From Myxococcota bacterium (lineage in GTDB: Bacteria; Myxococcota; XYA12-FULL-58-9; JABJBS01), in contig JAYZAY010000054.1 in NCBI GenBank assembly GCA_036339465.1, positions 24,872 to 88,871 on the forward strand: a stretch of 64,000 bases of DNA, read 5' to 3'. Shown piece by piece: positions 2,982 to 22,858 of the stretch. The position numbers and the translations under genes are program-made. The notes below the pieces were generated by a model. The model did no database searches and was not told the DNA's origin. It was given only the letters and a program-made list of their open reading frames with translations. Every line of letters starts with the position of its first letter. Position 1 is the stretch's first letter.

Positions 2982-4241
2982 TTAATCCACCCGCCAATAC
3001 ATGAATGACCGCGTGTTGGATAGTTCTGGGCGGTCAAAGAACGCCAGGGCTCCATCCCGCACCGCATAATCCCACTCTTCCCCGTCGTTGAGCTTATAGA
3101 ACTCAACCTCGGCGCCAAAAGTATGGTGAAACGGCGGCGTTTCGACCTTTTGAAGGGCGATACCCCCTAGAGAAAGCTGGTGAACCATTTGAATCCGACT
3201 CTCACCGGCCAACTTAAAGCCATTGAGATTCATCTGGCTGCCCACGCGCTCTTTTTGTAGGAGCCAGTAGACTTCTTTGGCCTTACTGGCCTCGGGAGGA
3301 AGCTTACAAACCAGGAGCCCCTGATTTATCTGAAACGGCGCATAGGGCATTTTCGTCCGTGAGGTTCGAATAAGGTTTTCAAGCTCATCCAACAATGTAT
3401 TGAAAAGCGGCCCTAAGCCCTGATGGTCATAAACGAGCTTCAACGAGGGAGGCTGTTTTTCCCGATAAATTGACACATCCAGGTAAAAACCATGCATTGC
3501 TCTGAAAATATCGTAGGGGTGGTAGCGAATATCCCCGTCTAAGTTCGCCAAAATGGCCTGGAATTCATAGAGCCCCCTTAAACATTGCTTCGCTGAAAAT
3601 AAACTTGCACCGCCCAAATAGTGTTCTTGGATATCGTCAACGAGGGCTTGATGAAACGCCTCTGTAATAGAATTGGCTTTTTCAAAGACATGGTCAAAGA
3701 ACGGGGAGCGTTGGGTAGACACGGTCGGAGGTATATATTCCTGGCTTAATGACCAAACCCCATCCACATCTTTTTCGAAATCCCCAAGTTTGAAGGAATG
3801 GAGGGAGGTTTCCGAGTAGGGGCTGGCTGATAACTGTATACGCTGAAGGATCTTGTCGATGCTCTCTTCATCTTCGGATTCCATGTCGCCAGAATGCAAT
3901 GTCTCAAACCCGGACTGGAGGTGTAAATAGAGAGAAACCTGTGAAGACCCAGCGATGTTCAAATTCATGGCATTGGGTTGTGTGTTTCCCGGGATATCCA
4001 CCAAAACGCCACTGGGTAAAACCAGGGTCAATTCCTTTAGGCTGACGATGCCCTCGAGAAATTGGAAAGGATCCCATTCAATACTTGCCAAACCCCATTG
4101 GGGGAGTGAAAAGTTTGTAAAACGAAGATTGCTTTCTTCCCGTAGAGAATGCTCTTGGGCATAGAAATGCTCTGGCAATAAGGCTTGCCCAATTTGCCAG
4201 TACACGCGTGCGGTCTGATGGTTGACTTTTCTTATAGCCAT
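2982..4241 (-). CDS. tssK: T6SS baseplate subunit TssK (IglD-like)
   Basis: ARVYWQIGQALLPEHFYAQE N-terminal motif, YIPP and YDHQ motifs; ATG at 4241 preferred because the ORF-track start lies inside a hairpin. Confidence 0.88.
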   Translation of the reverse strand: MAIRKVNHQTARVYWQIGQALLPEHFYAQEHSLREESNLRFTNFSLPQWGLASIEWDPFQFLEGIVSLKELTLVLPSGVLVDIPGNTQPNAMNLNIAGSSQVSLYLHLQSGFETLHSGDMESEDEESIDKILQRIQLSASPYSETSLHSFKLGDFEKDVDGVWSLSQEYIPPTVSTQRSPFFDHVFEKANSITEAFHQALVDDIQEHYLGGASLFSAKQCLRGLYEFQAILANLDGDIRYHPYDIFRAMHGFYLDVSIYREKQPPSLKLVYDHQGLGPLFNTLLDELENLIRTSRTKMPYAPFQINQGLLVCKLPPEASKAKEVYWLLQKERVGSQMNLNGFKLAGESRIQMVHQLSLGGIALQKVETPPFHHTFGAEVEFYKLNDGEEWDYAVRDGALAFFDRPELSNTRSFMYWRVD

Positions 4242-4301
4242 ATAGATGTAATGCCGATATTCGGGGTGTGGAGTCAATGGAAATCCGAAAGAGGAGAGAT
4301 G

Positions 4302-4329
4302 AAGTTCCCCACTCAAGGATGGGGAACTT
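4302..4329 (-). terminator. Stem-loop between hcp and tssK (terminator or mRNA-stability hairpin)
   Basis: Perfect 10-bp arms AAGTTCCCCA / TGGGGAACTT with an 8-nt loop, 16 bp after the hcp stop; no clean U-tract. Confidence 0.6.
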
Positions 4330-4345: not shown

Positions 4346-4981
4346 CTAAGCTGCGTTAACCTTGATTCCCCAGCCCCAGCAGGTTTTACTGTTTTTGGCA
4401 GTTGCAAAGTTCAGCGCTGACATAACATTCGCATCGGGGACCACCTCAAAATACATGTTATACATGTCAATTTTGATGTTGGGTGCGATTTGAGTGGGAC
4501 TAGATGCCAATGTCATTTGGATCGTGCCACCTTGGTCATTGATCTTCCCTTGCAGCGCAACGGCAGGAAAGCAACGCTCGAACCAGTCGGCTTCTTCTTG
4601 ATCAAATTGGCATGCCCAATAGTTGAGGTTTGCGATGTCTGACGTACCCACTGAATCTGTCTTCTTAGCCGATAGCTGATTGAAGTTGGCACTCGAGACA
4701 TAAACAGAGAAGCGGAGCGCATCACCGGCTGCGCCTCCCCAGGAGTACGAGTCCAAAATTGCGGCCACGGTTCCTGTTTTCAAGCCGGTATCGTCATCAC
4801 CAGTCAAACTAAAGTCCGGGGCACTTGTGTCGTCGTACTTATAGGGAGAGTAGACAACAATATCCGGCTCCAGGGCATAATCCAGAATGGTAAGGGTAGG
4901 TAGATATCCTACGGTCTTGTTCTCGCTCCAGTTAGGTAGACACGCTTGTCTCCAATCACACTGAACATTTGTTAAACTCAT
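4346..4981 (-). CDS. hcp: Divergent Hcp/TssD tube protein (IglC position)
   Basis: 211 aa, beta-rich, between tssC and tssK exactly as iglC is; strong AAGGAG RBS; paralogue at 17681-18295. No canonical Hcp motif, so the call is positional. Confidence 0.7.
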   Translation of the reverse strand: MSLTNVQCDWRQACLPNWSENKTVGYLPTLTILDYALEPDIVVYSPYKYDDTSAPDFSLTGDDDTGLKTGTVAAILDSYSWGGAAGDALRFSVYVSSANFNQLSAKKTDSVGTSDIANLNYWACQFDQEEADWFERCFPAVALQGKINDQGGTIQMTLASSPTQIAPNIKIDMYNMYFEVVPDANVMSALNFATAKNSKTCWGWGIKVNAA

Positions 4982-5036: not shown

Positions 5037-6524
5037 TTAGCCCAAACGCGCATCCACTCGAAGGTCTACATCCATACCTTCAAACTGAATATGAGGGAGA
5101 ATGGAGAGGTTACAGTGATACCAACCCACACGGCCAGGAACTTCGTTGACTTCGAGGCTATAGGCCTTGAAGGGGTAATAACGAAGCGTTAGATCGTCGG
5201 GGTTGACCACAGTGGTGATATACTTCGAAATCCAATGGTCAATTTGGTTGTAGATATAGGGCGCATCGGCGGTGCTACCTATATTGTCTCGCATAATGCA
5301 CTTGAGATAGTGCGCAATGCGACTGATGGAAAATGTGTAGGAGAGATTTGACACCAGCTGGGAATTTTCAGAATCTTTTGGGTCCTTGAAGTTGTGAGAC
5401 TTCTTAATGGATTGCACACTGAAGAAAACCGCGTCTGACGAACCCTTCTTCTGGATGAGGGGAATCAAGCCACTGTTGGCCAGCTCAAGTTCTCGGTAGT
5501 CAGGCATGGTGACTTCACATGGAAGCTTGAGTTGGGTCTCTCCGCGAAATTCGAATTTATGGCTGGGTAGTCCAGCCACCAGGCCGCCGGCCTTTGGCCC
5601 ACGAATATGCTGGCACCATCCTGACGTTTCGAAGGATTTTGCCAGATTACGGCCCATCAACAACGAAGCAGGTGCCCAAAGATAATCACTGTCCTCATTG
5701 CCAACCCTTTCTTCGAATGACACACCCTCGGCAGGATTTGTTTCATCGCTATAGGGACGTCGAGCCAGGTAGCGTGGCATTGTCAGACCGATATAGGCTG
5801 CTTGTTCGGTTTCCCGAAGCTGATTCCATCCAGCGTATTTTGGTGTGTCGAGCATACCCTCGATGTCTCGCAAGTTATTCACTTCGGCCATGGTTTCGCA
5901 TCCAAAAAATTTGGGTGAAACCGAGCCAACGAAAGGGGCATGGGAAGCCGTGGCGACTTTACCCATGGCCTTGAGCCAGAGAAGATCCTTTGGCGTATTG
6001 TTGAAATCATAGAGACCGAGGACCGAACCCCAGGGTGCCCCACCATACTGGTCATATTCGGAAACATAGATTTTTTTGAAGAATTCGGAGCCAGCAATAT
6101 CAGCGGCGTTCATTTCGAGATCTTCAAAAGCTTCTTCTTTGGACACGTCCAAAAGCCCGAGTGATATGTCTGCTTTAAAATTGACGTTATTACAGAGATC
6201 CTCAATGCCTCTCCACACCGACTCCACTTCTTGGAACGCTTCAGCGTGGTAAACTTCGTTGAGTTGATCTTCGATAAGCACATCGACTTGATTCACGAGA
6301 TCTGCGATACGCTGCTTATCAAAGCGGACGCCACCTTCGTCCATGTTGTATACAATGGTTGCAAGACTCGAGAGAAAGCGGTCTTCCTCGCTTACGTCCT
6401 CAGCCAAATCATTCATATGATTGGTAAGCATGGGTATTGGGGATTCCACTTCGCTGCTGAGCTTCACACTCGATAAAAATGAAGGTAAGTCTAATGTGAC
6501 TTCGGTATCTGTTTGATCTGCCAT
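5037..6524 (-). CDS. tssC: T6SS contractile sheath large subunit TssC (IglB/VipB)
   Basis: FQEVESVWRG, EYDQYGGAP, ASHAPF, GWCQHIRGPKAGG, SRIAHYLK and PHIQFEG motifs. Confidence 0.97.
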   Translation of the reverse strand: MADQTDTEVTLDLPSFLSSVKLSSEVESPIPMLTNHMNDLAEDVSEEDRFLSSLATIVYNMDEGGVRFDKQRIADLVNQVDVLIEDQLNEVYHAEAFQEVESVWRGIEDLCNNVNFKADISLGLLDVSKEEAFEDLEMNAADIAGSEFFKKIYVSEYDQYGGAPWGSVLGLYDFNNTPKDLLWLKAMGKVATASHAPFVGSVSPKFFGCETMAEVNNLRDIEGMLDTPKYAGWNQLRETEQAAYIGLTMPRYLARRPYSDETNPAEGVSFEERVGNEDSDYLWAPASLLMGRNLAKSFETSGWCQHIRGPKAGGLVAGLPSHKFEFRGETQLKLPCEVTMPDYRELELANSGLIPLIQKKGSSDAVFFSVQSIKKSHNFKDPKDSENSQLVSNLSYTFSISRIAHYLKCIMRDNIGSTADAPYIYNQIDHWISKYITTVVNPDDLTLRYYPFKAYSLEVNEVPGRVGWYHCNLSILPHIQFEGMDVDLRVDARLG

Positions 6525-6567: not shown

Positions 6568-7113
6568 TTATTCTGCTGCGGGTTCTTCTGCTGTGGCTAC
6601 AACTTTGGTTGGGACCTTAAAGCACGTGTGATCCTTAAGTGAACTCTGAAGAGCGGAAACCGCGTCAGGGCTATCGCTTAGAGCTTGCACCAAACGACGA
6701 AAATCTTTTCGGTTATCGAGGTTTGATTGTGCTTCCAGTAGTAGCTTCTTGAGCAACATCAATCCCTTCACTTTAGGAATGGCATTTCCCACCGCGAGTG
6801 GTTCAAAGGATTTCATGGATTCAATGGGGATTTCGATATCGAGACCCTCAGAATTTTCGGCATCGATTCTATTGGGCACAGTCATTTTAATGGAAACGCC
6901 CATATCTTTGAGAACCGCATTTAAATTGGTGCCATCGAGCTGGCGAATGTTACGAGCATCTAAATCGTTTGCCCGGTCGGTGGATGTTCCCGCAGATAAA
7001 TCACCCATCACCAGCATTCTGAAGGGCAATGTAACCTCTTCTTTTTGACCTTCTACCTGAGTTTTGTAAGTAAGAGTTAGTCTGGATTTTGGAATTTCTT
7101 GATTGATTGCCAT
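6568..7113 (-). CDS. tssB: T6SS contractile sheath small subunit TssB (IglA/VipA)
   Basis: IPKSRLTLTY...LPFRMLVMGDLS...SMKSFEP; directly upstream of tssC. Confidence 0.95.
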   Translation of the reverse strand: MAINQEIPKSRLTLTYKTQVEGQKEEVTLPFRMLVMGDLSAGTSTDRANDLDARNIRQLDGTNLNAVLKDMGVSIKMTVPNRIDAENSEGLDIEIPIESMKSFEPLAVGNAIPKVKGLMLLKKLLLEAQSNLDNRKDFRRLVQALSDSPDAVSALQSSLKDHTCFKVPTKVVATAEEPAAE

Positions 7114-7352
7114 CGGTTCCCCCAAGGCGTTTAGGACTCTAAGTCATTTATCTAAAATATGTTTAGGCAGTGACATTCTTACCACTCACCCACGATCCGA
7201 ACGGAGTTCATCCGAGCACACGCCCAGGCTTCGAGTCAAGAAATTTGTTCACCGGTTAGGAAGGCTTGAGGAGGGTATGGATAAGAAGGGGCGACTTGCT
7301 TACGCTCTCCAGCTTGAGTGACAGACACTCCATGGGGGGGCGGAGAGCATAC

Positions 7353-8243
7353 TCAACTTTTCTGAGCCGTGCTGCCGTTAAAGACAGTAATTTGGTGTTC
7401 AGAAACGCTAGAAGTTCTGATCTTTTCAAAACCGAGAAAGCCAGCGTTTCCGAGAGTCGCGGAACTGGCATGCTCTTCGACCACCAATACGACTTTCAGC
7501 CACAGTGGTGTTGCTTTTAATTTAGGAAGAAGTCGAGTGGACATGCGTTGTGTTACCAAGAGTGGCCAAGCAGATCCAGTCATCTGTTTTTCGTCCCGGG
7601 AATAGAGGATTATCAAAAAGCCACAGATGGTGGCATTGAAATGCTTACCCAAAGTGGAAGATCCATCCATGACGGAGTGCCCTGTTTGAGCGCCCGAATG
7701 GGGCAGCGCGTTTTTGAAACGTTGGCGCTCAACGACGACTTTGAGTTCGGGGAAATAGAGCGAGAAGAGCCAGCTAAGCCCACTGACGGAATCAAGACCG
7801 ACCATTTTTGCGTACGCGATTTTGTGAGCATCCCAGGATTCATAGAGATGTTGATCGAGTTCCACATAGAGTAGACTGATAAAGGATCGAAGGAGTTGAT
7901 TGTCAAAGAAACGAAGGAAATTGAAGAATGGATCTGGATTTTCCAGGCCTTCAGCAATCTGCATAAAGTAGGAAGGTAAGAGTCCCCGTTGATCGTGGAG
8001 CCCTAAATTTAGCCTCACCACCACATGCTTCGGTGGCCCGTCTTTGAAAATCACTTCGTGGACCAAGGCGTTAATCGACCCGCTATCCATATTGCTTTCG
8101 AATAAAATATCGTTCAATTCATAGCCGGCCCGAGCTAAGACGCGAATCAACGAAATCAAATCAAAATCTCGGGCCCGTCGAGTAATCCTATCCTGATTCG
8201 TGGCTCGTTTGTTGGGGCCTAAGGGGGCTGTCATGGACGCCAT
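7353..8243 (-). CDS. tssG: T6SS baseplate subunit TssG (IglJ-like)
   Basis: VRLNLGL...GLLPSYF, FLRFFDNQL and LGNAGFLG motifs typical of TssG. Confidence 0.8.
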   Translation of the reverse strand: MASMTAPLGPNKRATNQDRITRRARDFDLISLIRVLARAGYELNDILFESNMDSGSINALVHEVIFKDGPPKHVVVRLNLGLHDQRGLLPSYFMQIAEGLENPDPFFNFLRFFDNQLLRSFISLLYVELDQHLYESWDAHKIAYAKMVGLDSVSGLSWLFSLYFPELKVVVERQRFKNALPHSGAQTGHSVMDGSSTLGKHFNATICGFLIILYSRDEKQMTGSAWPLLVTQRMSTRLLPKLKATPLWLKVVLVVEEHASSATLGNAGFLGFEKIRTSSVSEHQITVFNGSTAQKS

Positions 8244-8289: not shown

Positions 8290-9357
8290 CTACTGTGAAA
8301 TAAAGGATTCCAGATCCACTTCGTAAAATTGTCTTAAGGTTTCCCATTTTATCCCGTCTCGCTCTTGCCAATGTCCGGAGATGGTTTGAATATTTTTATT
8401 GAGGTCCCCATAGAAATTGGCGAAGAGGGCGGGAAAATATTTCCTGGGGTCAAAGTTTTGGATCAAACCGGAGACATCATCTCCGACCAAGGCAGCTCGG
8501 TCTAATTTTTTTGCTTCCACCAAGGATTGAAAGGCTTTGAGCTTTCGAATCAAAGCCAATAGTTCGGCTGATGGTCCCTGCGTGCCAAAAAGGATATCCA
8601 ATATTTCGGATGCATCGGAGAGTTTAGCCTGTGGACGTATGGTGTCTGGGGTTGAGGTCGGGGAAAAATCCCCTTGTGATTCGGTCGATGGTGGTTTGTT
8701 TTCCTCTGACACGGACACCTCAGCATTTTCTTTCGGATTCTCTAAGTGGTGACCTAGATTTCCGAGTTCCCGAGTTAAACTGCTAAATAGGGTTTTTAGG
8801 TCAGCGGAATTGAGCTTGTCAAAGAGCCATCCTTCCAGCTCGCACACTTGCTCCAAAACCATCTGAAGTTTTTTCTCAGAAAGTCCCAAGACCCATTCCT
8901 GCAACTGTTCATCCTTCTTTAAACGATGGTATTCGATATTGCGAATGAGTTTTTCTAGCAGTGTTGCAACTGATTTAACGACATGTCTGTTCTTTTGTTC
9001 AGTTGGGCCAAAACCATCCCATGAGGATTGGAGAAAGAGTCGGAATGCTTCGCAGTGTTGGCCAAAAACAACCACACTTTCTTGGAGGAATACGTGATAT
9101 AAGTCGAAGCATAACAGCCTTATATCGAGAATGTTTTTATCGACCAACGCTTGAATTTCTTCAGAGGCTTCGAGATAGCGTTCTGTCTCGTAGAGATCGC
9201 AAATCGATTGAAAGCGTGGGTCAAGGGAATCTAGTCCGCTGACCATTTCAGCAGAAGGCGGCGGGTTACGGAGAAATTTAAGAGCTAACGTCATTGGCCA
9301 TATTTCTAACCTTAGTTTTAGAGGCTGTCCAACTTTAACGGTCTCCTTAATCTCCAT
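8290..9357 (-). CDS. iglI: IglI-family / TssA-like T6SS protein
   Basis: All-helical, LDIRLL near the N-terminus, low-complexity linker, C-terminal FDPRKYFPALFANF; immediately upstream of tssG, as iglI is of iglJ. Alternative start at 9294. Confidence 0.6.
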   Translation of the reverse strand: MEIKETVKVGQPLKLRLEIWPMTLALKFLRNPPPSAEMVSGLDSLDPRFQSICDLYETERYLEASEEIQALVDKNILDIRLLCFDLYHVFLQESVVVFGQHCEAFRLFLQSSWDGFGPTEQKNRHVVKSVATLLEKLIRNIEYHRLKKDEQLQEWVLGLSEKKLQMVLEQVCELEGWLFDKLNSADLKTLFSSLTRELGNLGHHLENPKENAEVSVSEENKPPSTESQGDFSPTSTPDTIRPQAKLSDASEILDILFGTQGPSAELLALIRKLKAFQSLVEAKKLDRAALVGDDVSGLIQNFDPRKYFPALFANFYGDLNKNIQTISGHWQERDGIKWETLRQFYEVDLESFISQ

Positions 9358-9539: not shown

Positions 9540-9923
9540 ATGTTTTTACATAAACATTTTATCGCGAGAGATGAGAAACCCGGCAATGTCATTGAGGATA
9601 TTTTGCGGAATCTTAAATGGATATTCCAGAGCAAGCGGGGTTGTGGGTATTTCATGGAAGAATTTGGTCTCAGTGATACGGGATTTCGAACCCCGGTGGA
9701 GATGGTCGAAATTCTCAGCGACGAGCTCAAAGAGAACATCAAATTATTTGAGCCGAGAATAGAATTGCTTGAAATTATCGATGACTATTGCCCTGAGACC
9801 GGCCGGGTTTGTTTGGAGCTCATCTGTCGATTTACACAGGAGAAGGACGTCCTTACCTTGAGACTCGATCCCAGAACCAGACAGATAGAAGTGGTTCCCC
9901 TCGAAGAACTTGAGAATCGTTAA
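9540..9923 (+). CDS. tssE: T6SS baseplate TssE (gp25-like)
   Basis: EDILRNLKWIFQSKRG...EFGLSD...IKLFEPRI gp25/TssE signature. Confidence 0.85.
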   Translation: MFLHKHFIARDEKPGNVIEDILRNLKWIFQSKRGCGYFMEEFGLSDTGFRTPVEMVEILSDELKENIKLFEPRIELLEIIDDYCPETGRVCLELICRFTQEKDVLTLRLDPRTRQIEVVPLEELENR

Positions 9924-9979: not shown

Positions 9980-11599
9980 ATGTTTATCAATCGACTTATT
10001 GTAGACCTAACGCTCAAAATCGACGGCAAATCCTACAAGATAGAATCAGGTAATATTAAAAATCTAGATCTCAAGCTGAGTGCCTATGGTTATGAAGCGA
10101 CCTTGGATTGGTGGAAAATATGCTTAAACAAATCGAGTGAAGATACCATTAAGGCCGCTTTTATGAAAAATTCTCTGATCGAAGTCACCATGTCTATCGA
10201 TCGTTTTTTCGATAAAGGTGGTGAAGCGGCAGCTCCGATTAAACTGAAAGGAATTGTCACAACCAAGCGCTTCCATGCCAGAGCGTTCGAAGATGTTAGT
10301 GGGGAACCTGTTTTACACCGTCATTATTTTATCTCATTCAAAGACCCGGCCAGTGTCTTGTGGGGCCAGCACTTTCCATGTGATCTGTACACCAAGAAAT
10401 CGGTTAAAGATCTGATTGAAGATCATAAAACCTCGAATTTCTTACTCAGTTATGCTTGCACACCCATGACGACCAAGCACCCATTTCTTTTTCTTGGGCT
10501 GGGGCAAAAGGAGAGTTCCGCGAGTTTTTATGATTTTGTGATATGGTATTTGAAAAGCGAAAATGCAGGCATGTATTATAATGGGACAAAAAACACTTAC
10601 ACACTCACAACAAAAAAAGATACGAGTGCGAAAATAAAAGATTTTCCGGTAGCAGATGCTGATATTGTGAATATAGAATTCACCGAAACGCCACGTTACA
10701 GCGTCAATGTTTTGAACAGCTATGCGACTAAATCGACCACGGAAAAAGTTGCAAACAAAGATGAAGTGAAGGGGATTCGGAAGGATATTCTTATTGCATC
10801 CCCAATTGCCAGCACTTCAAAATCAATCAAGACAAATCAAACGAGTAAACTCGTCGATGAACAACCCTTTCTCACCATTGAATACGCTCGATATCCCACC
10901 GTCGATGCATTGCCTGGCACGATCTATCTTTTTAACAAGAGCGACTGGAGCAAAGAGCTATATCAATCCAACAAGAAATTCCGACTTCGAGAACTTCGAC
11001 TTTTGGCTGAAGCTGAATCTCAATTGGGCACCGATGATGCTGACGAGGATTCAAATTCGTACAAAATTCAACTGACTTCGGTTCTAGAAGAAAAAGAAGA
11101 AGTGCATCACCCGTTACCAGAATTTGTCACACCCTATTGGCCTGCCAAAGTTGAAGGGAAAATTGTCAGCGAAATAGGCAAGGAGACCGAAGAGACTTAC
11201 CAGCTTTACGAAGATGACTCTAAATCCCTGGAGCAGTATCACGTAGAGATCCCTCTTTGGAAGAAACAAAAAATAATGGTAAATCATGACCCAAATTTAT
11301 TTCCTGGGCATTTTTATTTCCCTCTTTATAAGGACCACCGAGTGCTGGTTGATATGTCGTTCAAAGAAGCATGGATTAAGCGGCACCTTGAATGGCGTGC
11401 AGGCGCCAAACTACCAAATGATAAACAGGCTAACCACATTCTCTTTGGCAAAAACCCCAAAGACAGCACTTCCATGGTGCATGCTTATAAAGAGAAGAAA
11501 CCTGTTTTTAGCATTACGCGTCTTTTGGATAAAGACACCCAACTCATTCAAGTTTCCGAGGGGGAAATTCTTATTGAAACCAAAGAAAATGAAAAGTAA
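9980..11599 (+). CDS. VgrG hub-only protein (PdpA/gp27-like), lacking the long beta-helix spike
   Basis: 539 aa following tssE; gp27-like pattern (KGIVTTKRF, YFISFKDP, SFYDFVIW), OB-fold-like VEGKIVSE...GHFYFPLYKDHRVLV, ends after only a few beta-strands. Confidence 0.6.
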   Translation: MFINRLIVDLTLKIDGKSYKIESGNIKNLDLKLSAYGYEATLDWWKICLNKSSEDTIKAAFMKNSLIEVTMSIDRFFDKGGEAAAPIKLKGIVTTKRFHARAFEDVSGEPVLHRHYFISFKDPASVLWGQHFPCDLYTKKSVKDLIEDHKTSNFLLSYACTPMTTKHPFLFLGLGQKESSASFYDFVIWYLKSENAGMYYNGTKNTYTLTTKKDTSAKIKDFPVADADIVNIEFTETPRYSVNVLNSYATKSTTEKVANKDEVKGIRKDILIASPIASTSKSIKTNQTSKLVDEQPFLTIEYARYPTVDALPGTIYLFNKSDWSKELYQSNKKFRLRELRLLAEAESQLGTDDADEDSNSYKIQLTSVLEEKEEVHHPLPEFVTPYWPAKVEGKIVSEIGKETEETYQLYEDDSKSLEQYHVEIPLWKKQKIMVNHDPNLFPGHFYFPLYKDHRVLVDMSFKEAWIKRHLEWRAGAKLPNDKQANHILFGKNPKDSTSMVHAYKEKKPVFSITRLLDKDTQLIQVSEGEILIETKENEK

Positions 11600-11607
11600 C
11601 CTCTAAA

Positions 11608-13365
11608 TTAGGTTCCTAATTCCTCGGCATCGCTTTCAACAACTTTTTCCATCAGCATCCTCAATTCGGACAATACAGGAAATACGGTTGATTGCTGTTT
11701 GATTTGGAGATACCCGCTTCGGTATTGTTCTTCACACCAAGAGAGGTCGATTTTCCCATCTTGTTTTTCAGGGTAAAGAGAATAGAGCTCAATTTGGCCG
11801 GGAATAAATTCTGAGCCGAGCTCCATGCTTAGGACTTGATAGATTTCGCTTCTGAACGAGTTTTTATTTTCATTGCTTAATGCACCAAAGATGCCCGCAT
11901 CGAGAAATATTAGTAAATTGATAGATCCCTGTTGATATCCCTTAGCATTTTGAGCATTCAAAACCACGCAGTCGTAAACTGCTTCAAATCGACAAACCAG
12001 ATTTTGAACCTCAGTTTTAGGATACGTTCGTGCACCACGTACACCGAACATGGTGCCCACAAAATAGTTTTCTCGATGGTTTGGACGATTGAGGATGCTC
12101 AACCCGTAATGGTGTTCGTTAAAATCGAGGGCGGGGGTGCCAAAAAATCCACTGCTATCCATTTGTGATTCGGCTCCACCGCCGAAATCCATGAGACTCC
12201 AGGGATTTCCCGGAGAAGGAAATATTCGCAAATGTGATACTGATTTTAACTTTTGTCCAAATAGGATGATACCTCCATAAGCGGAATTCGCCAGGATATT
12301 CATCGCCCATCGCATCTCATTGTTGAAAAACTTAGAGAAACGCTCCCATGACTCCCAATCCATGGGCATGGCCACGTCCTTAAACCAGAGCCGTATGGGC
12401 GCTGATTCAGTAGGAGGGCGACTCAATAGCCAATCGCGGGTCCTATGGTTAAGCCCAACAACCGTTACTTCGAAACCATCTGAACATTCTGCGTTTTCAA
12501 TCAAGTGGTCGGGGTCTGTCAAAACAAAAGTTGCTCCCGAGAATAAAGACACTAAGAAGAGCCACGGTTGATATTGCAGGTCATGAAAACCAGGGGCACT
12601 CAATTTATCCCCCTCTTGAAGGCCAAAGAGAAGAAAAGCATCGCTTAAGAGTCGATGATAAAGATCACTTGCTTTTAATTCTACCGGCTCTGTGGAATTG
12701 GTACTAAGTGGCGAAAAGAGGCGCATGACCACCTGTTCTGCCTCGTAACCATGAACTTCGTGGTGAATAGAACCAAATTCAATTTTAGGAAGAACGCCTG
12801 AGGGGAGTTGTTTGTCTGCAAAATCTCCGAGAAATACTTCATACTTATTCTCAGTCACCACAAAAGCCGGTTCCAATGTGCGCAAACGGTTCTTTACAAA
12901 AGTTCGGCCCTGGGGTGGAATAAACGAAAAGATGCCGCCTAATTTCAGCGTTGTGAGCATGGCGATCAGAAAATTCAGGCCAGGATGAAGAACCACGCAA
13001 ACCACACTCCCTACTTCAAAACCTTTGTCCAGCCATTCACTGGCAACTTGTGATGCTTGTGTGGTCAAATAATCAAACGAATATTCCTGCCATCCGTTGA
13101 TGGCATCATAGAGCCGAAGAGCGGGAAGTCCCTTTCCTTGATGTGGGTGTAGTAAATCCCAAGAAAACACATAATGTTCAAATATTGAAGATTTTCGGGC
13201 GCCATGGATGCTTTGAAACTCTTCAAATAATGAGGACCAAAACGACTCCGGTTCTGCATAACTTCGGTGTAGCCAATTTTGGGGTTGAATTGTGGGTACC
13301 TCAACCCGATCAGTACGCAAGCTCGACCTTATCTTACTAAAGTCAAATTGATACTCTATTGTCAT
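11608..13365 (-). CDS. Acyl-CoA synthetase (AMP-binding/ANL) fold protein with a degenerate catalytic signature
   Basis: ACS-like N-terminus (WLHRSYAEPESFW), GFEVGSVVCVVL..LTTLKLGGIF, C-terminal EVQNLV..AVYDCVV..LGSEFIP; the TSGSTGxPKG loop is replaced by FSPLSTNSTEP. Confidence 0.7.
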   Translation of the reverse strand: MTIEYQFDFSKIRSSLRTDRVEVPTIQPQNWLHRSYAEPESFWSSLFEEFQSIHGARKSSIFEHYVFSWDLLHPHQGKGLPALRLYDAINGWQEYSFDYLTTQASQVASEWLDKGFEVGSVVCVVLHPGLNFLIAMLTTLKLGGIFSFIPPQGRTFVKNRLRTLEPAFVVTENKYEVFLGDFADKQLPSGVLPKIEFGSIHHEVHGYEAEQVVMRLFSPLSTNSTEPVELKASDLYHRLLSDAFLLFGLQEGDKLSAPGFHDLQYQPWLFLVSLFSGATFVLTDPDHLIENAECSDGFEVTVVGLNHRTRDWLLSRPPTESAPIRLWFKDVAMPMDWESWERFSKFFNNEMRWAMNILANSAYGGIILFGQKLKSVSHLRIFPSPGNPWSLMDFGGGAESQMDSSGFFGTPALDFNEHHYGLSILNRPNHRENYFVGTMFGVRGARTYPKTEVQNLVCRFEAVYDCVVLNAQNAKGYQQGSINLLIFLDAGIFGALSNENKNSFRSEIYQVLSMELGSEFIPGQIELYSLYPEKQDGKIDLSWCEEQYRSGYLQIKQQSTVFPVLSELRMLMEKVVESDAEELGT

Positions 13366-13389: not shown

Positions 13390-13842
13390 TCATCGCCCCT
13401 GGACCGCAATTTTTTGGATTTCGTGGGCACCCAATGAAATCTTTGCTTCAGAGGGCAGGGGATTTCTAAACATATAATACCAATTAGGTCCGGGATCTGT
13501 GAATAAGAAATAAACGGCGATATTGTCTTCATCGGGCGTACGGATTTCAAGATGAGAGATTTGGCCAGGGAGAAGAACTTCTTTGGATAATACGGTGCTT
13601 TCTGCCGTTGAGCGGAAGACGTTGCTGGCGATACTCTTGTAATCACTCGAAGCCAAGGCATCGGAACCCGAGCTTCGAACTACGACGTAAAATGGCTCGC
13701 CGCCGTTGGTTGCTTGTGACGTTTTCACTTGGATTCGCATCATCGATGTACATCCCGACACACCTATCCAACCACAAAGAAGAGCTACAAGTGGCACCCA
13801 TGCACTTCGGCGAAAGCTCAAGTATTGTTGATAGTATCTCAT
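13390..13842 (-). CDS. tssJ: T6SS outer-membrane lipoprotein TssJ (IglE position)
   Basis: Lipobox VSGC, TNGGEPFYVVVR and VLLPGQ; ATGA overlap with tssM. Confidence 0.75.
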   Translation of the reverse strand: MRYYQQYLSFRRSAWVPLVALLCGWIGVSGCTSMMRIQVKTSQATNGGEPFYVVVRSSGSDALASSDYKSIASNVFRSTAESTVLSKEVLLPGQISHLEIRTPDEDNIAVYFLFTDPGPNWYYMFRNPLPSEAKISLGAHEIQKIAVQGR

Positions 13843-16800
13843 TGTTGGTCCCTATAGACGATTTTCCGAGTGTTGGGAAGAATTTCGAATAGAGTCCAAG
13901 GATTCTCATATAAGACAAAACTTGCCTCAATATTGACCCGAGAATCATCAGGAATAGGTAGATCCCAAGACCAAGTATTGTGGCTATCACGAGCCTGCTT
14001 GAGCAACTCATAGAAGCTCCAATAGGAATCTTGAGTCACCATGGGTTGCGGATAAGAAGGTTGACGATTTTCGACATCGGTAAATTGCGCTCCAAGTTGG
14101 GAAACATGCCGCATGGTCCAATCAAGGTTTACTTTGGATTGAAAGGGTTTTTGATTGATATTCACGAGGGAATTCTTGCCCCAACTGAGATAAACCAGAG
14201 TCAATGTGTCACTCTGACCTTTTACCATAGGGCCAAAGGGGACCGGCTCAATGGTGAATTCTAGGTCTTTGGGGTTACCCTCTGAGTCCCATAACCTTTT
14301 TGCCAATCGTGTGGTATTATTTAAGGCAGTGATCATGTCAGAGGGCAGATGAAGTCTCCGCAATAATGATGGTTTGGCCATATACTCGCCGCCCTTCAGA
14401 ACCGTGACCGGAAGCACGTATTGATCCACCAACTGGAAAAACCGACCTAAGGTGGGATGTAAATGAGCTTCGAGTTCCTGTGGGTCGACCTCTTCAGTGC
14501 CATTGTGGTCAAAAGGAAACTTTCTCAATACGGGTCGAATACTTGGGAGGAGGTCGTGGGCCCAAATTTTGGCGACGGTTGTTTCTAGTTCTCTGAGGCC
14601 AACCAAGTACAATTGATGGATAGGGGCTAAGAAGGGTTGCCTTAGCTCTTTTACAATGCCGACACTGTTGACCCATTGGTTCACAATGTTGAGATAGGTG
14701 CCGTCCTGCCTCATAAGGGTATCGAGGGCCTGGCTCCCCACCGGGTTTAACCGGGCTTTGAGCCCCACCGCAGTGGTTGAGGTTTCTTCTGTGGCCGAAG
14801 CTGTTTCAGTTGCTGTTAAGGTGCTATGCAACTGGTCCAAAATAGCCCGATACTTATCAAACTCAGGATAGACCCCATCGGTTCTCTTCATCACTGTATT
14901 AAAAGAGCGAAACCGAGCTAGGGCATTCACCATAGGGTCAAAGAGCTCGGTTCTCGATTTTTCAAAATTGATATTGGTATTCTTATGCACAAATTGAAGA
15001 AAAGTTGTATAAGGTGAGACGGGCTGCAAAATTTGCTTAATTGCGACCAACAGACCTTCCACCGACCCCACATTTAGACGAAAAGAATGATAATAATTTA
15101 ATGTTTGTCGAGCATACTCGGAAGCATATGCATCCATTTTCCGATAGATAAATTGCTTTAATTCCCATCGGTCCTGTGGGGCTAAATCAACCGCCCCTAA
15201 AAGTTGGTCAAATTCCATGATGGCGGGGCGAATTTCTTTATTAAAGGCTGCGTGAGTATAAATGCCCTCTACCTGAGTTTTGCCTAGGAAGAGGGAGTTC
15301 CCATTATTGGTAGGATTTAAAACCACGGCCGAGTACTGAGTTGGATCCGAAAAAAAGGTCGAACCGTTTCGAGTGGCATTATGGTCCATAAAGGATTTGA
15401 CGATGTGCCGGATCCGGCTAGTTTTCATGATCGCATACCAATCGATATTTCGAATCATGAATTGGGTATCTTGAATTTTGAACTCCCAGCTCCTTGGTTC
15501 AGCTTCTTCTGCACTCGGATACTGTTTGGCTTGTTTGATTAGCCCAATTAAATTTGGCAGGGTTTCTGGGGGAGATTGCAAATCTATAAAGCGACTGCCT
15601 ACAAAGAGCTGAAGAACGGCGCCTATTTTTTCGCTCATTTCGGGGGGCAAACTATTCTGTTGGATCTGCGGAAAGAACATTTGGTATTGCTTGGTATCGC
15701 TGGCAAAGGGCGAATCTTTTAAGAGCGTTAGAATTGTTGCACCATGTCTGAATCGCTTTGCGAAAGAAAGCTCATCTAAGAGGTCAGAACCAATGGCCTT
15801 ATGTTTCTCAAGTTGCGACTTTGTGACATACTTATTGCGCTTAATGAGTTCGCGATAGGTTGAAAATGCCAGACTCCACTTTTCTAGATCTTCAATTCCT
15901 TTAGATTTAAAGGTCGTAGGTAGGGTTTTCTCCGAAAGTTGTCCAGAATGGGGTTCGAGAGTATTTTCGATATAGACTTTGATGAGTTCAGCGGGAAGTC
16001 CCGAAGCTTTTTGCCAATCATCCAAATTCTGAGAAACAAATAATCCCATAGCGTTACTGCTGGAAGCTCGTACCAAGCCTTGTAAATACAACGTTTTCAA
16101 GTGCGGGTCACTGGATAGTAAGGCCTCTTGGTAGGCGGGTTTGATTTTTGTTTCGAGAATAATTTTGGATGCTTCTTCTCGAATATATTCTTGAGCCACC
16201 CCAAGAAATTCAGGCACAAGAACATCTCGTGCGGCATAGGAAGAAACACCGGTAAAATTGGAAACGGATGCCAAATCCTTTGCTGCAGCATCTGTTACCT
16301 TTGAAACGTTTAAAACCTCTAGGGCCCGGTCAGCACGCTGCCACAGGTTTCTTTCGTAGGAGTACAAACCTACCAGGAGTGCGATCATCACGCCTGTCAC
16401 TGCAGCGGCTAAACGGCGATGCCGCAGGAGGGGAGCATCCGCCTCTAGTCCGTAATGTTCTGAACCAGCGGCGAGAGGGTTGTTGGTATTGGAAGGATAG
16501 TCTTTTGAGGTGAAATATATTCCCCCAAGAGTGGGTAGATAAGAAAGGGATTCGGGTCTCAGAAGACTGTCTAAAACCTCTGATAGGGCTCGGAATGATT
16601 CCGGGGCCGCCTTCAAATACCGAACCACCTGTTTGAATTCGTCAGCGGTGCAACCACTGAGGGCAATGGGTAGATAGGTCCCACATTCATCAAATGCGCG
16701 CTGTATACTGCTTTCTGTGGTCGATTCCGGGTGAAGAACCGTGGGGATGGCTCGATTCTTGGTGAAGGCACTAAATTCAGCGTAGCCTTGGACTTTATCC

Positions 16801-17486
16801 ATTCCCGTGATGGCTAGCCGCACTTCGACACAACCCCCATGGGCCCAAGAAAGGAGGTTGAGTTTCCCACGTATCCTTTCGGCGATCTTTTCCCGTGCAT
16901 CGGGGGTTAACGCACCCAGCTCTTCAACTGACATCACCACCACTACAGTGGGTGGAGTATTCTTGAATAATTTTTTCCACAGACGAAGGATGGCCTGTCG
17001 GGTGGGTTTTGAAGTGTCGTTGAGAAGGGAAGCTGAGATTTCTTGTAAGACCGTTTTGGAACCCAAATAGATCTTCAAGTCGACATCTTGTTCATATTGG
17101 GTTAGGAATTGATTCGCCTGACGCTGCCAATCGGTACTCGAGTCAATTAGCGCGGATTTCCCACTCCCCGACGTCCCTAGAACCACGATGGGCTTGAATC
17201 GTTGGAGGCTTCGCTGAAAAGTTCTGGGTATTTCCCGTAAGAACCGATTCCAAATCCTAGTCAGTGCGTCTTTACGCATCTTAACCCCGGATATCGGTAC
17301 AACTGGCCGCTCTTCGCTCGTGGTTTGTTCTTGTTTTGCCTCTTTCTTTTTCTTTCGCCAGTACCAAATACCGACAATCAATGGGATGAGGAGAATAATC
17401 AGCTTGAGTACGGCAGGATGAATCTTCACACCAAAGCCCTTGAGTATTTTGAAGAATGCCTTGAGTTCTTTCACGTTTCCGACCAC
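13839..17486 (-). CDS. tssM: T6SS membrane subunit TssM (IcmF/PdpB-like)
   Basis: 1215 aa, N-terminal TM helix, Walker A GTSGSGKS, second TM near aa 360, KFPFD and SYWSFYELL C-terminal motifs. Confidence 0.9.
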   Translation of the reverse strand: MVGNVKELKAFFKILKGFGVKIHPAVLKLIILLIPLIVGIWYWRKKKKEAKQEQTTSEERPVVPISGVKMRKDALTRIWNRFLREIPRTFQRSLQRFKPIVVLGTSGSGKSALIDSSTDWQRQANQFLTQYEQDVDLKIYLGSKTVLQEISASLLNDTSKPTRQAILRLWKKLFKNTPPTVVVVMSVEELGALTPDAREKIAERIRGKLNLLSWAHGGCVEVRLAITGMDKVQGYAEFSAFTKNRAIPTVLHPESTTESSIQRAFDECGTYLPIALSGCTADEFKQVVRYLKAAPESFRALSEVLDSLLRPESLSYLPTLGGIYFTSKDYPSNTNNPLAAGSEHYGLEADAPLLRHRRLAAAVTGVMIALLVGLYSYERNLWQRADRALEVLNVSKVTDAAAKDLASVSNFTGVSSYAARDVLVPEFLGVAQEYIREEASKIILETKIKPAYQEALLSSDPHLKTLYLQGLVRASSSNAMGLFVSQNLDDWQKASGLPAELIKVYIENTLEPHSGQLSEKTLPTTFKSKGIEDLEKWSLAFSTYRELIKRNKYVTKSQLEKHKAIGSDLLDELSFAKRFRHGATILTLLKDSPFASDTKQYQMFFPQIQQNSLPPEMSEKIGAVLQLFVGSRFIDLQSPPETLPNLIGLIKQAKQYPSAEEAEPRSWEFKIQDTQFMIRNIDWYAIMKTSRIRHIVKSFMDHNATRNGSTFFSDPTQYSAVVLNPTNNGNSLFLGKTQVEGIYTHAAFNKEIRPAIMEFDQLLGAVDLAPQDRWELKQFIYRKMDAYASEYARQTLNYYHSFRLNVGSVEGLLVAIKQILQPVSPYTTFLQFVHKNTNINFEKSRTELFDPMVNALARFRSFNTVMKRTDGVYPEFDKYRAILDQLHSTLTATETASATEETSTTAVGLKARLNPVGSQALDTLMRQDGTYLNIVNQWVNSVGIVKELRQPFLAPIHQLYLVGLRELETTVAKIWAHDLLPSIRPVLRKFPFDHNGTEEVDPQELEAHLHPTLGRFFQLVDQYVLPVTVLKGGEYMAKPSLLRRLHLPSDMITALNNTTRLAKRLWDSEGNPKDLEFTIEPVPFGPMVKGQSDTLTLVYLSWGKNSLVNINQKPFQSKVNLDWTMRHVSQLGAQFTDVENRQPSYPQPMVTQDSYWSFYELLKQARDSHNTWSWDLPIPDDSRVNIEASFVLYENPWTLFEILPNTRKIVYRDQQ

Positions 17487-17680: not shown

Positions 17681-18295
17681 TTATTCACCCCATTGTTTCA
17701 CCAAATTCACGGTTTTTCCTAGGGAGACTTGAAGGTTCGATTTCTTTCCTTCTTGGGGAACAACTTCAAATTCCATGCGATAGACTCCAATATTGATGTT
17801 CTCGGAAATTGGGGTCGCGGTGGATTGGGTAAAAAGCTGCATCTCGCCACGGGTGGTGTTTAAGGTGGCGCTGGCTCCCGCCGAGGGTGACTTAACGTAG
17901 GCACCGTCATACCAGGAATTAACGTCTTTATCGAAGGAGCAAATGAAGTAGTCTAGTTTCAAATTGGTATTTCGAAGTCCCTGGCTGAGTTTTGATCGGA
18001 TGGAAGCACTGGTACTTGCACTTATGTAAGCAACGATTCGGATGGGGTCAAGTTCGCTCCCCCCGTATTCAAAACTCTCCATAACACCAACACATTTAAT
18101 CGAAGATCCCTTTTGAACTCTCGAATCGGGATAGGGGTTCCAAACCTCGATATCCTGTTTGAGGTTCAAGCCACCACAGCCACTCCACTTTACCACATAG
18201 CCTAGGGTGGTGGTTCTCGCGGGATTTCGGTTGAATGCCTCTGGCCAATCACACTCAAATTTTATGACATTACCGTCTGCCACGGTTACTCCCAC
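17681..18295 (-). CDS. hcp: Second divergent Hcp-like tube protein
   Basis: Shares CDW..A, T.GY, DI.V..PY, C.FD.....W, NI.I..Y.M.FEVVP and WG with 4346-4981. Confidence 0.65.
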   Translation of the reverse strand: MGVTVADGNVIKFECDWPEAFNRNPARTTTLGYVVKWSGCGGLNLKQDIEVWNPYPDSRVQKGSSIKCVGVMESFEYGGSELDPIRIVAYISASTSASIRSKLSQGLRNTNLKLDYFICSFDKDVNSWYDGAYVKSPSAGASATLNTTRGEMQLFTQSTATPISENINIGVYRMEFEVVPQEGKKSNLQVSLGKTVNLVKQWGE

Positions 18296-20400: not shown

Positions 20401-20946
20401 CTAAGAGTCGTGTTCACATCTGGTATTGAGGGGTAAAAGCTGATGATTCAAAGACAAACTAGATTTTAGGGTTCTCAAAATTTGTTTTCCACAGATCATG
20501 CGCTTTATCGGCAAATAGAGCAAAGCCACAATGACCAATTCCTCAATGATCCAAGCACTGGATAGCAAGGATAGGTTTTGGTCGTCATTCGCTTGTAAGA
20601 GCACCATCCGGGGAATCGGGTCTTCTTCACAAAATTGTTCAAGAAAAGGGGCGGAAAAGTGGTCGTTGCGCATTTCAAAAGCCTTTATGAGGGAAGAATA
20701 ATGCGCATCGATGGAATCGAGATTCCCAGGTTGGGCACTCAGCTGCAAGGTTTGGGGGAATTGGACGTTATCTTTCTTGTTACATTGGGCAGAAATGGCC
20801 CTCGAAGGATCACCGGACATGTCGATGCTCCCAAATGTGCTCAGACAGAGGGTGAGGGGGTAGTTTACCCACTGAGATGCTTCGGGAATGACGTGAAATT
20901 CACCGGGCAACTCCAAACAGAGTCCACCGTATTCTCGAATGTTCAT
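20401..20946 (-). CDS. Hypothetical protein
   Basis: 181 aa; ATGA overlap with the methyltransferase stop. Confidence 0.6.
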   Translation of the reverse strand: MNIREYGGLCLELPGEFHVIPEASQWVNYPLTLCLSTFGSIDMSGDPSRAISAQCNKKDNVQFPQTLQLSAQPGNLDSIDAHYSSLIKAFEMRNDHFSAPFLEQFCEEDPIPRMVLLQANDDQNLSLLSSAWIIEELVIVALLYLPIKRMICGKQILRTLKSSLSLNHQLLPLNTRCEHDS

Positions 20947-22040
20947 GCCTCTTCTTTTGCTTTTGGTGGCTGTTTTCGAGCCATTGCCAGCCGAGAAAGA
21001 TATTGGATGGTGTTTCTGGCGTGGACTCTCACGTCCCAGGGAATATCCAACTCTTCCTCAACCCTGAGCGATTCACCATTGGACAATTGCAAGGCCTGAA
21101 TTAATTCGAGAAAAACCTGCTCACTGGAGCCTTCACAATTGGTTCGCTGGGAATGTCCGCCCAACCATCCGGCCATGGGCGTTGCTTGGGCTGACCAGTC
21201 AAATGGCGTTGAAAGATAAAGGGGGCTATGGACTTTCAGCACTCTCAACAATTCGTGAATATGGTTTGCCGGAGCGCTGACACAATCGAGTAAATTTAAA
21301 CTCAAGGCCGCGCCCACACTGCCGCCGGAGAAAGGTAGAGCCATGGCATCACAAGCCCAAAAATCTACCCGCTCCATGCCCACTGACTTATAATGAATGT
21401 CATGGGTGTCATAAACTACCCCCACCCGTTTTCGAGGATAAGAAGCACGCCCGGTGGAGATGAGTTTCTGAGCAAATCGAAGCATCGTAAAATTTAAGTC
21501 GATTCCCAAAACCGGTTGAGCTGATTTCACCCGAGCCGCGATTTCAAAGGTGGCTCGCCCCAATGCACAACCAACATCTATAAGCGGACTATCGAGGGGT
21601 AGTGCTTCTCGAGCAAACAACGGTTCCAAGAATGCAGAGATTGGAGACACCGAATCCGATTGATTCAAATCAAGATCAAACTCTCGATAGTGGCCATCGG
21701 CGTACGCACTTAGATAATGCCGGCCTACGTCAAATGCCGCACCGGGCCCCAAACAATCACCGATAAGCCCTGTGGTGAGAGAACCTAAGTCTTCACGCCA
21801 TAATATCTCATGGGCATGTTCCGATACATAGTCACGAAGATTGGGGACAATAATCGGAATGCCATCGATAATGGGGTATTCTGAGCGACATTCAGAATCC
21901 TCGCAAATCAAAAGCCCCTCTTCAATGCCCAAAGATGATGACTTTGACACCGACCCTATTTTCAGGGGGGTTTCTCGTTCGAAACGCTGCCGACAATTGG
22001 GACATACGGGGCGAAAAATCTCAAAGTGCAACGATTTCAT
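20943..22040 (-). CDS. Class I SAM-dependent methyltransferase with an N-terminal Trm112-like zinc knuckle
   Basis: CPNC...GLLICEDSECRSEYPIIDGIPII, then IDVGCALG, GIDLN, CDAMALPF and ELLRVLK. Confidence 0.88.
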   Translation of the reverse strand: MKSLHFEIFRPVCPNCRQRFERETPLKIGSVSKSSSLGIEEGLLICEDSECRSEYPIIDGIPIIVPNLRDYVSEHAHEILWREDLGSLTTGLIGDCLGPGAAFDVGRHYLSAYADGHYREFDLDLNQSDSVSPISAFLEPLFAREALPLDSPLIDVGCALGRATFEIAARVKSAQPVLGIDLNFTMLRFAQKLISTGRASYPRKRVGVVYDTHDIHYKSVGMERVDFWACDAMALPFSGGSVGAALSLNLLDCVSAPANHIHELLRVLKVHSPLYLSTPFDWSAQATPMAGWLGGHSQRTNCEGSSEQVFLELIQALQLSNGESLRVEEELDIPWDVRVHARNTIQYLSRLAMARKQPPKAKEEA

Positions 22041-22058
22041 TCCACCATTCTCCGGATT

Positions 22059-22439
22059 CTAATTGATTTTGACCGTAGGACATCCGGGCGCTTGGATCTT
22101 TCCCAAAGGGGAAGGGATGGGGGCCACACAGGTGAGATGGGCGGTCTTATCTCCCACACGCGCTGCGGGAAGGCCGTAGATTTTGACCTTCTTTGAACCA
22201 TCCACCACAAGCCCTGGTCCCCCCGGAACACAGGGACCCAATAGGCAAGGTGTGGTAACACTTCCGACAATCGCCGCAGGCTGGCCACCAATCAAGACAT
22301 TGGGCACCCCAACGACAATGGGCAAGGGTAAGGGAGAATGGGGGACTGGGGTTGGTACTGGAGCAGGTGGGTGAATTGGCGCATGACAGTGGGGGCTGGC
22401 CTGTTTAACTAAATCACCAACTCGAGCGGCATTGGGCAT
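22059..22439 (-). CDS. PAAR-repeat spike-tip protein
   Basis: NAARVGD, PAAIVG and PAARVGD repeats with metal-type Cys/His residues. Confidence 0.95.
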   Translation of the reverse strand: MPNAARVGDLVKQASPHCHAPIHPPAPVPTPVPHSPLPLPIVVGVPNVLIGGQPAAIVGSVTTPCLLGPCVPGGPGLVVDGSKKVKIYGLPAARVGDKTAHLTCVAPIPSPLGKIQAPGCPTVKIN

Positions 22440-22471
22440 TTCTCACTCCAAAATTAAGCAGGTCGAAAAAA

Positions 22472-22858
22472 TTAATTGAGATGAATCATCTTACCTCGGA
22501 CGCGAACCTCTCCCAGGCCTGTCACTTCAACATCCTCACCGGCTTCCAATTTCATGGATTTCGCACTTTTCACCACGCAACCTTCCTCAGCCTCAAGGGT
22601 GATATTCTTGGCGCAGAGGTGAAGGTGCTCGCCACCTTCAAGCCGTAGTTTTGAAGAGGCTATAGCAATGGTGGGGCCAGATTCTTCCATGGTGATTTTT
22701 AGTATCACGCTTTTTTGGGGGATCTCAGAAACCATTGCTTGGGTTTGAATTTCAAGATTGAGGGTATCGCCTGGGGCAATCTCCACCCGCTGACTTCGGC
22801 TCGAAGAATCGACTTCATGAAGAATAGATTTCTCTTTGGGTAAAATAAGAGCAGACAT
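22472..22858 (-). CDS. Short gp5/VgrG C-terminal-like mini-spike protein
   Basis: 128 aa with serial beta-strands (LHLCAKNITLEAEEGCVVKSAKSMKLEAG) ending RVRGKMIHLN; directly upstream of PAAR. Confidence 0.5.
   Translation of the reverse strand: MSALILPKEKSILHEVDSSSRSQRVEIAPGDTLNLEIQTQAMVSEIPQKSVILKITMEESGPTIAIASSKLRLEGGEHLHLCAKNITLEAEEGCVVKSAKSMKLEAGEDVEVTGLGEVRVRGKMIHLN

Follow-up and report, generated by a model that had tools for sequence, protein, structure and literature searches.

The gene at positions 11608–13365 (minus strand) of the window, by which we mean the whole stretch of 64,000 nucleotides of myxococcotal DNA analysed here, encodes a 585-residue protein with the fold of acetyl-CoA synthetase (Acs) and related ANL enzymes. 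Judged from its sequences, the protein family has lost the determinants for ATP, adenylate and CoA, and it co-occurs strictly, with one copy per system, with a type VI secretion system (T6SS) of the IglE/IglI/PdpA kind. With chances that we put at about even, the protein is a subunit at the injection spike, an adaptor or cargo without catalytic activity. The secretion system is of a known kind with a kind of subunit so far unreported: in full-text searches that covered mainly the main texts of openly accessible papers, we found no description of an acyl-CoA-synthetase-like T6SS component or of a Francisella-like subtype in myxobacteria. Curators may already know such loci, because these proteins pass the cut-off of the NCBIfam IglI model.

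We confirmed the open reading frame at these coordinates. As placed by the initial annotation, it starts 24 bp past the stop of a 150-residue lipoprotein gene on the same strand (13390–13842, minus), which in turn comes after tssM (13839–17486, minus; PF14331; TIGR03348 E 1.3e-18), in whose product a Walker A-like motif, GTSGSGKS, can be read. The label tssJ for the lipoprotein gene has to be replaced, since its product is the IglE-type counterpart of TssJ (PF22361 E 6.1e-18; NF041245 E 5.7e-14, below cut-off). The gene had also been described as the end of its operon, which holds in the window, where the next gene is convergent and 8 bp away, but not in relatives, where a DUF4280 gene mostly follows. 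Pfam assigns only AMP-binding to the protein, and weakly (PF00501 E 2.3e-8). Contigs from four public marine runs are letter-identical to the window wherever they cover 11608–13365, which rules out an assembly error for the covered parts of the gene; the P-loop codons are covered by two of the four runs, one run reaches across the intergenic space into the upstream gene, one spans the junction with the convergent gene, and the best of the four may itself be the source sample. A membrane protein is unlikely, as the sole hydrophobic peak (Kyte-Doolittle 1.89, residues 118–136) sits within the ANL core. Promoter and terminator scans gave scores at or below chance, and no RNA run was listed as a holder of the gene.

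The structure model of the protein is confident (pLDDT 93.3, pTM 0.93) and comprises a complete ANL fold, with both the large N-terminal adenylation domain and the small C-terminal subdomain; a model from a four-sequence alignment was dropped (pLDDT 38). The top Foldseek matches are Acs (TM 0.68), and among the 50 fold matches shown there is no solved T6SS protein, which excludes nothing. Alignment by hhalign to 11 Acs sequences is collinear from end to end (probability 99.87, 563 columns, 14% identity), so the ACS-like framework recognized in the initial annotation does extend throughout. Profile searches return Acs as the best match both in the PDB (2p2f, E 1.9e-23) and in the protein's own genome (E 2.6e-17, versus 1e-7 for the next ANL protein). 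In a tree built quickly from 46 rows, the family joins Acs with a support of 71 only, and in VIA-align other CoA ligases rank level with or above Acs. The family is probably an old, catalytically dead ANL-fold derivative that arose from acetyl-CoA synthetase.

Active ANL enzymes carry a P-loop, (S/T)(S/G)G(S/T)TGxPK, as motif A3 and a Thr-Glu in motif A5, whose glutamate binds Mg; motif names A3, A5, A7, A8 and A10 and residue roles follow standard ANL nomenclature. We mapped each residue by profile alignment, using the Acs numbering of L127. The P-loop pattern is found in none of 143 family members, compared with 16 of 19 control ANL proteins of the same genome, and no member has more than three of the five motif patterns, compared with four or five in 15 of the 19 controls. 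In the window's protein, FSPLSTNSTEP (residues 217–227; 12685–12717, minus; family consensus LFSPL..P) aligns on the Acs P-loop YTSGSTG--KP, and NILANSAYGG (residues 356–365; 12271–12300, minus) aligns on DTWWQTETGG, with Ser/Ala-Ala in place of Thr-Glu and Gly-Gly retained. The TGD of A7 (Acs FTGDG) falls in a deletion of the family that includes D495. The replaced P-loop and the lack of YGxTE and TGD, all noted from the letters at the outset, are each upheld by this alignment; what that survey overlooked is the A10 lysine (K606), which the window's protein retains in G537-K538-I-D (residues 537–540; 11746–11757, minus).

Across the family, the P-loop Gly and Lys are retained in 0–6% of members, D405 in 1%, the A5 glutamate E411 in 0% (Ala in 72%), the A8 arginine R510 (GRxDD) in 0%, the CoA hairpin GRRGG in 0–13%, an R584-like arginine in 22% and the A10 lysine in 12%; 83% of members have a proline within the old P-loop. 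Only seven of the 71 Acs-invariant polar or charged positions are retained in half or more of the family. Conserved residues of the family's own lie at 58–70, 241–242, 266–267, 327–329, 370 and 540–569, where D540 (91%) opens a family-specific D..WC..Q motif, and, by consensus, Q264, Q266, R329, N356 and S370 are newly conserved polar positions surrounding the former pocket. The designation as a pseudoenzyme is well supported by these comparisons, and with motif loss extending through the family an ordinary active CoA ligase is not to be expected. An atypical adenylating enzyme that is still active, acylating a T6SS part or making a small molecule, is very improbable: the A10 lysine of the window's protein and the names of its homologues ('AMP-binding protein' or 'Acetyl-coenzyme A synthetase') would speak for it, but the P-loop and motif counts and the poor conservation of that lysine argue against it, and the modifying enzyme offered as an option in the initial annotation is disfavoured likewise. 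The database names probably denote the wrong function.

The same residues bear on a further option, a ligand sensor (for AMP, acyl-CoA or another metabolite) that would gate assembly via ANL domain rotation. Both ANL subdomains are retained, as are Acs residues E382, W389, G413-G414, G519 and E526, and the model is nearer to the Salmonella Acs entries (TM 0.67–0.68) than to the Cryptococcus entries (TM 0.55–0.57), which we take to be the thioester-forming and adenylate-forming states, respectively. Because the residues lining the Acs ATP and CoA sites are lost too, and a proline mostly occupies the old P-loop, we consider a sensor quite unlikely and its earlier form, a sensor of nucleotide or acyl-CoA, weak; the new polar pocket residues leave some room for it.

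A full HMMER scan retrieved 331 family representatives at 50% identity (E up to 1e-30). Word-index searches had found just four proteins and are hence too blunt for this family, the fusion search included. Across 31 homologues dN/dS has a median of 0.40 and a maximum of 0.67 (386 of 465 pairs with usable dS; 0.20 for DUF4280, for comparison), which indicates at the codon level that purifying selection acts on the family. We rejected a decaying pseudogene, with intact frames in 68 of 68 matches and dN/dS below 0.68 in all 386 scored pairs; motif loss, conserved residues of its own and dN/dS together identify a maintained pseudoenzyme family. Measured against the window's copy, the family has diverged to a similar degree (median 29.7% identity) as TssK (31.3) and the IglJ-like protein (30.1) have. 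Covariation over 143 sequences was too noisy for contact mapping. Named homologue records come from Corallococcus, Pyxidicoccus, Myxococcus and other Myxococcota, one Desulfobacterales and one Uabimicrobium; the last (P0065) is from Candidatus Uabimicrobium amorphum, a prey-engulfing planctomycete. Two family proteins, P0051 (825 residues) and P0122 (744 residues), bear a Pro/Glu-rich tail of 170–250 residues ending in a common ESDVM(L/I)(L/I)xDD motif, as if a short binding peptide were held on a tether.

The surrounding T6SS cluster, the only one found in this genome (92.8% complete), contains TssB, C, E, F, K, L and M, a classical PAAR, a ClpB-type ATPase, the IglE lipoprotein and IglI. Convergent with the pseudoenzyme gene lies the gene of a 539-residue PdpA-like spike hub (9980–11599, plus), for which a profile of 18 homologues gave one PDB match, Francisella PdpA (6u9e, E 4.6e-7). 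Beyond it follow TssE/gp25-like (9540–9923, plus; PF04965 E 1.3e-6), an IglI-family protein (8290–9357, minus; NF041244 216.6 bits, cut-off 100) and a probable TssG/IglJ-like baseplate protein (7353–8243, minus), assigned mainly by position; its homologue in G001 (35% identical) matches TIGR03347 (E 0.005), and the IglJ model NF041243 gave no match. TssB (6568–7125, minus; PF05591, TIGR03358), TssC (5037–6524, minus; TIGR03355) and TssK (2982–4316, minus; TIGR03353, 316 bits) are clear, with TssC in a divergent score class of 477–510 bits, versus 535–736 for other full-length proteins. A probable Hcp/IglC-like tube protein (4346–4981, minus) is placed by position, after tssC as in most loci, and had no significant PDB match; a second Hcp-like paralogue (17681–18295, minus) is 26% identical to it (E 3e-21), and divergent pairs of this sort recur in many related loci.

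On the other side of tssM lie a classical PAAR, the sole tip protein found in the genome's cluster (22059–22439, minus; PF05488 E 1.5e-12), a weakly matched 128-residue VgrG-needle-like protein (22472–22858, minus; NF041249 E 0.0025), the ClpB-type ATPase (22934–25552, minus; TIGR03346 1087 bits versus 777 for the ClpV model TIGR03345, both below cut-off; 1093 versus 785 bits in G001, again both below cut-off), TssL/DotU (26191–26886, minus; PF09850), TssF with a weak IglH match (26903–28561, minus; PF05947; TIGR03359, NF041246) and a small VgrG-like protein of 220 residues (28967–29629, plus), whose G001 homologue (45% identical) matches NF041249 (E 2.3e-4). The initial annotation saw a T6SS here correctly and missed both its Francisella-like nature and the iglF position of the gene; markers of subtype T6SSii that we found are IglE, IglI, PdpA, a small VgrG (weak) and ClpB in place of ClpV.

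Several neighbours of the cluster deserve mention. The block past clpB (20401–22858, minus) holds the small VgrG-like gene, the classical PAAR, a Trm112-like and methyltransferase fusion with a weak OvoA C-terminal match and a 181-residue protein without assignment, and is possibly a tip and cargo module replacing DUF4280 here. A HEAT and cNMP-binding protein of 1216–1217 residues lies near or inside the T6SS locus both in the window (32236–35889, minus), where it adjoins a TonB-dependent receptor, and in L095 (13519–17169), where it has a TLC transporter match. A 600-residue protein with a weak eCIS-core (DUF4157) match (41751–43553, minus) and a phospholipase D-family protein (45640–47403, plus), 12–17 kb from the cluster, are possible cargo. 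A 758-residue protein with Sushi and several EGF-like repeats is encoded at 50132–52408 (minus). Another contig of the genome (G000:C57:4118–4372) has a further tssK-like stretch, which is partial and 78% identical across 85 residues, and long apolipoprotein-like helical repeat proteins stand at the cluster edge in G001 (L009:7493–9121) and G029 (L008:11413–13539).

Among 301 genomes of the phylum, the pseudoenzyme family is present in 54, and the independent IglI model matches the same 54; the 14 genomes that have the one in two copies also have the other in two. TssC occurs in 98 genomes, and the 44 of these without IglI also have no member of the family. The split stands at 50 of 115 in the largest genome family, and many carriers have a second, higher-scoring TssC. 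These counts include kin, are not independent and are given without a statistic. We fetched 44 loci (13 named, 20 chosen across genera from 68 matches and 11 metagenomic), mostly close kin and some possibly the same place fetched twice; in 43 of them one or more further genes of the system are present, and the remaining one is a 2.5-kb contig. The T6SS linkage proposed from the window alone is thereby carried over to the homologues.

The next gene encodes a DUF4280 PAAR-like tip protein in 36 of the 44 loci, another gene follows in five (L084, L091, L101, L105, L109) and the contig ends in three. The pair stays intact even where the remaining cluster is inverted. One protein, P0094, holds an ANL-like domain, a 100-residue linker and DUF4280 in a single chain; it is one cluster member on two contigs and may be a read-through, and no second fusion was seen among 27 extended DUF4280 proteins. 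By eye, the tails of P0111 and P0018 resemble out-of-frame read-through into the downstream DUF4280 gene. DUF4280 was not found in the window's genome, though the pseudoenzyme gene is present, and 20 records of a plasmid collection carry close DUF4280 proteins; the pseudoenzyme family was not found in that collection, so DUF4280 does not need the family. Taken together, the neighbours of the gene favour the spike tip (DUF4280) over the cytoplasmic TssM, TssL and TssK. The order tssM-iglE-pseudoenzyme in the window, G001, L094, L095 and L096, persisting in the window without DUF4280, would suit a scaffold that sits on the cytoplasmic side of the membrane complex of TssM, TssL and IglE and docks the baseplate there; since most other loci have no tssM-iglE upstream, yet DUF4280 downstream, such a scaffold is decidedly unlikely.

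The pseudoenzyme could also be a conserved effector that is secreted on the PAAR-like tip and acts in prey via a new activity or binding site of the remodelled pocket. Effectors are expected to show patchy spread, and one copy per system in all 54 IglI-positive genomes therefore counts against this; nor was any candidate immunity gene, or any small gene, seen in the gaps inspected between the pseudoenzyme gene and DUF4280, and the divergence resembles that of baseplate parts. The DUF4280 adjacency, the one fusion to a PAAR-like cargo carrier and the new conserved polar residues at the old pocket favour it, as does Francisella IglF, called a secreted, putative effector in the accessible text of PMC5924787, PMC5349215 and PMC5014421. 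We rate an effector as rather unlikely.

The spike-subunit reading assumes that an Acs-fold protein was recruited as a one-per-system subunit of the IglE/IglI/PdpA T6SS, and makes a repurposed scaffold, given the motif loss and T6SS linkage, the best-fitting of the options first offered. In the cytoplasm, the pseudoenzyme would bind a putative partner, the PAAR-like tip or the PdpA/VgrG spike, fill the baseplate cavity and help sheath assembly to begin, the role reported for Francisella IglF, and may then be fired out together with the spike. Conservation suggests a new binding or locking surface formed by (i) N-terminal residues 58–70, (ii) R241-D242 and (iii) the C-terminal D540-W543-C544-Q547...R569. 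Because no DUF4280 was detected in the window's genome, the partner's place there would fall to the classical PAAR or to the spike.

In G001, L094 and L095 the gene order is tssM-iglE-pseudoenzyme-DUF4280-iglI-(iglJ-like), which we take to match the Francisella island order, with the pseudoenzyme gene in the iglF place. In the parts of the literature available to us, iglF lies between vgrG and iglG, and IglF binds the DUF4280 protein IglG via an N-terminal extension of IglG (PMC5014421, PMC5349215); deletion of iglF or iglG lowers sheath assembly to about 1 per 400–500 cells (PMC5481754). IglF resembles the pseudoenzyme in standing directly upstream of the DUF4280/IglG tip gene (so in 36 of 44 related loci, not in the window), in size (67.9 kDa, PMC5924787, versus 585 residues) and in a system that shares IglE, IglI and PdpA. 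It differs in its partner: the 128-residue DUF4280 proteins of our family are without the IglG-type extension, so the IglF–IglG interface cannot simply carry over. Once ANL families were excluded, a protein atlas search returned no match above 0.87, a result that is silent on IglF homology. By analogy of position, we tentatively raise the possibility, at well below even chances, that the pseudoenzyme family and IglF are one lineage, IglF being a further-eroded Acs fold and the dead enzyme a subunit that loads the spike and is conserved in every T6SSii-like machine. If so, the Francisella-type system would be a weapon common among free-living Myxococcota and others, and harmless, culturable myxobacteria would make it accessible to study. 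The T6SS parts list would gain a subunit type, a metabolic enzyme fold without catalysis in every copy of the subtype examined; a second phylum is added to the range of Francisella-like T6SSs, with 54 of its 301 sampled genomes as carriers, culturable non-pathogens included; and the unexplained FPI genes iglF, iglI and iglJ obtain a tractable model along with a specific guess at the IglF fold.

Compared with Acs, the family has the whole-length fold, the Acs-type N-terminal segment and the best profile match in common; it differs in the loss of the CoA hairpin and of the catalytic residues of motifs A3, A5, A7, A8 and A10, in its new N- and C-terminal motifs and in always lying in a T6SS locus. 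The DUF4123, DUF2169 and DUF1795 adaptors are likewise non-catalytic, are encoded beside PAAR/VgrG and load spike cargo (PMC8651086, accessible part), whereas the pseudoenzyme has a metabolic-enzyme fold and is tied to the core cluster, not to one effector; these Pfam families had no match in 20 family members scanned. That source, in the same part, discusses DUF4280 neighbours without mention of the pseudoenzyme family, which its data sets could list. The T6SS of Myxococcus xanthus DK1622 (MXAN_4800-4813), from the same bacterial group, differs in its set of 13 core genes, which has tssJ, tagF and a standard VgrG, and the available portions of its descriptions mention no acyl-CoA-synthetase-like gene (PMC5801462, bioRxiv 10.1101/108233, PMC6627406, PMC6880969). 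On a Francisella novicida plasmid (L110, NZ_CP010104.1) solitary genes of the IglI and IglJ families lie amid insertion sequences, and no IglF was found. A paper of 2026 (PMC12955703) terms T6SSii exclusive to Francisella, and IglF has been called unique to the FPI in comparison with the FNI island (PMC5014421), both as far as the accessible text goes. The FPI itself has a TssM without Walker A and no clear TssE, according to the parts of PMC5014421 and PMC5481754 at hand. The window's system, by contrast, has a clear TssE/gp25, a Walker A-like TssM motif, an in-cluster ClpB and a non-Francisella host; with the Francisella T6SSii systems (FPI, FNI) it shares IglE, IglI, PdpA, a small VgrG-like protein and a ClpB-type unfoldase, to which its relatives add the DUF4280 tip.
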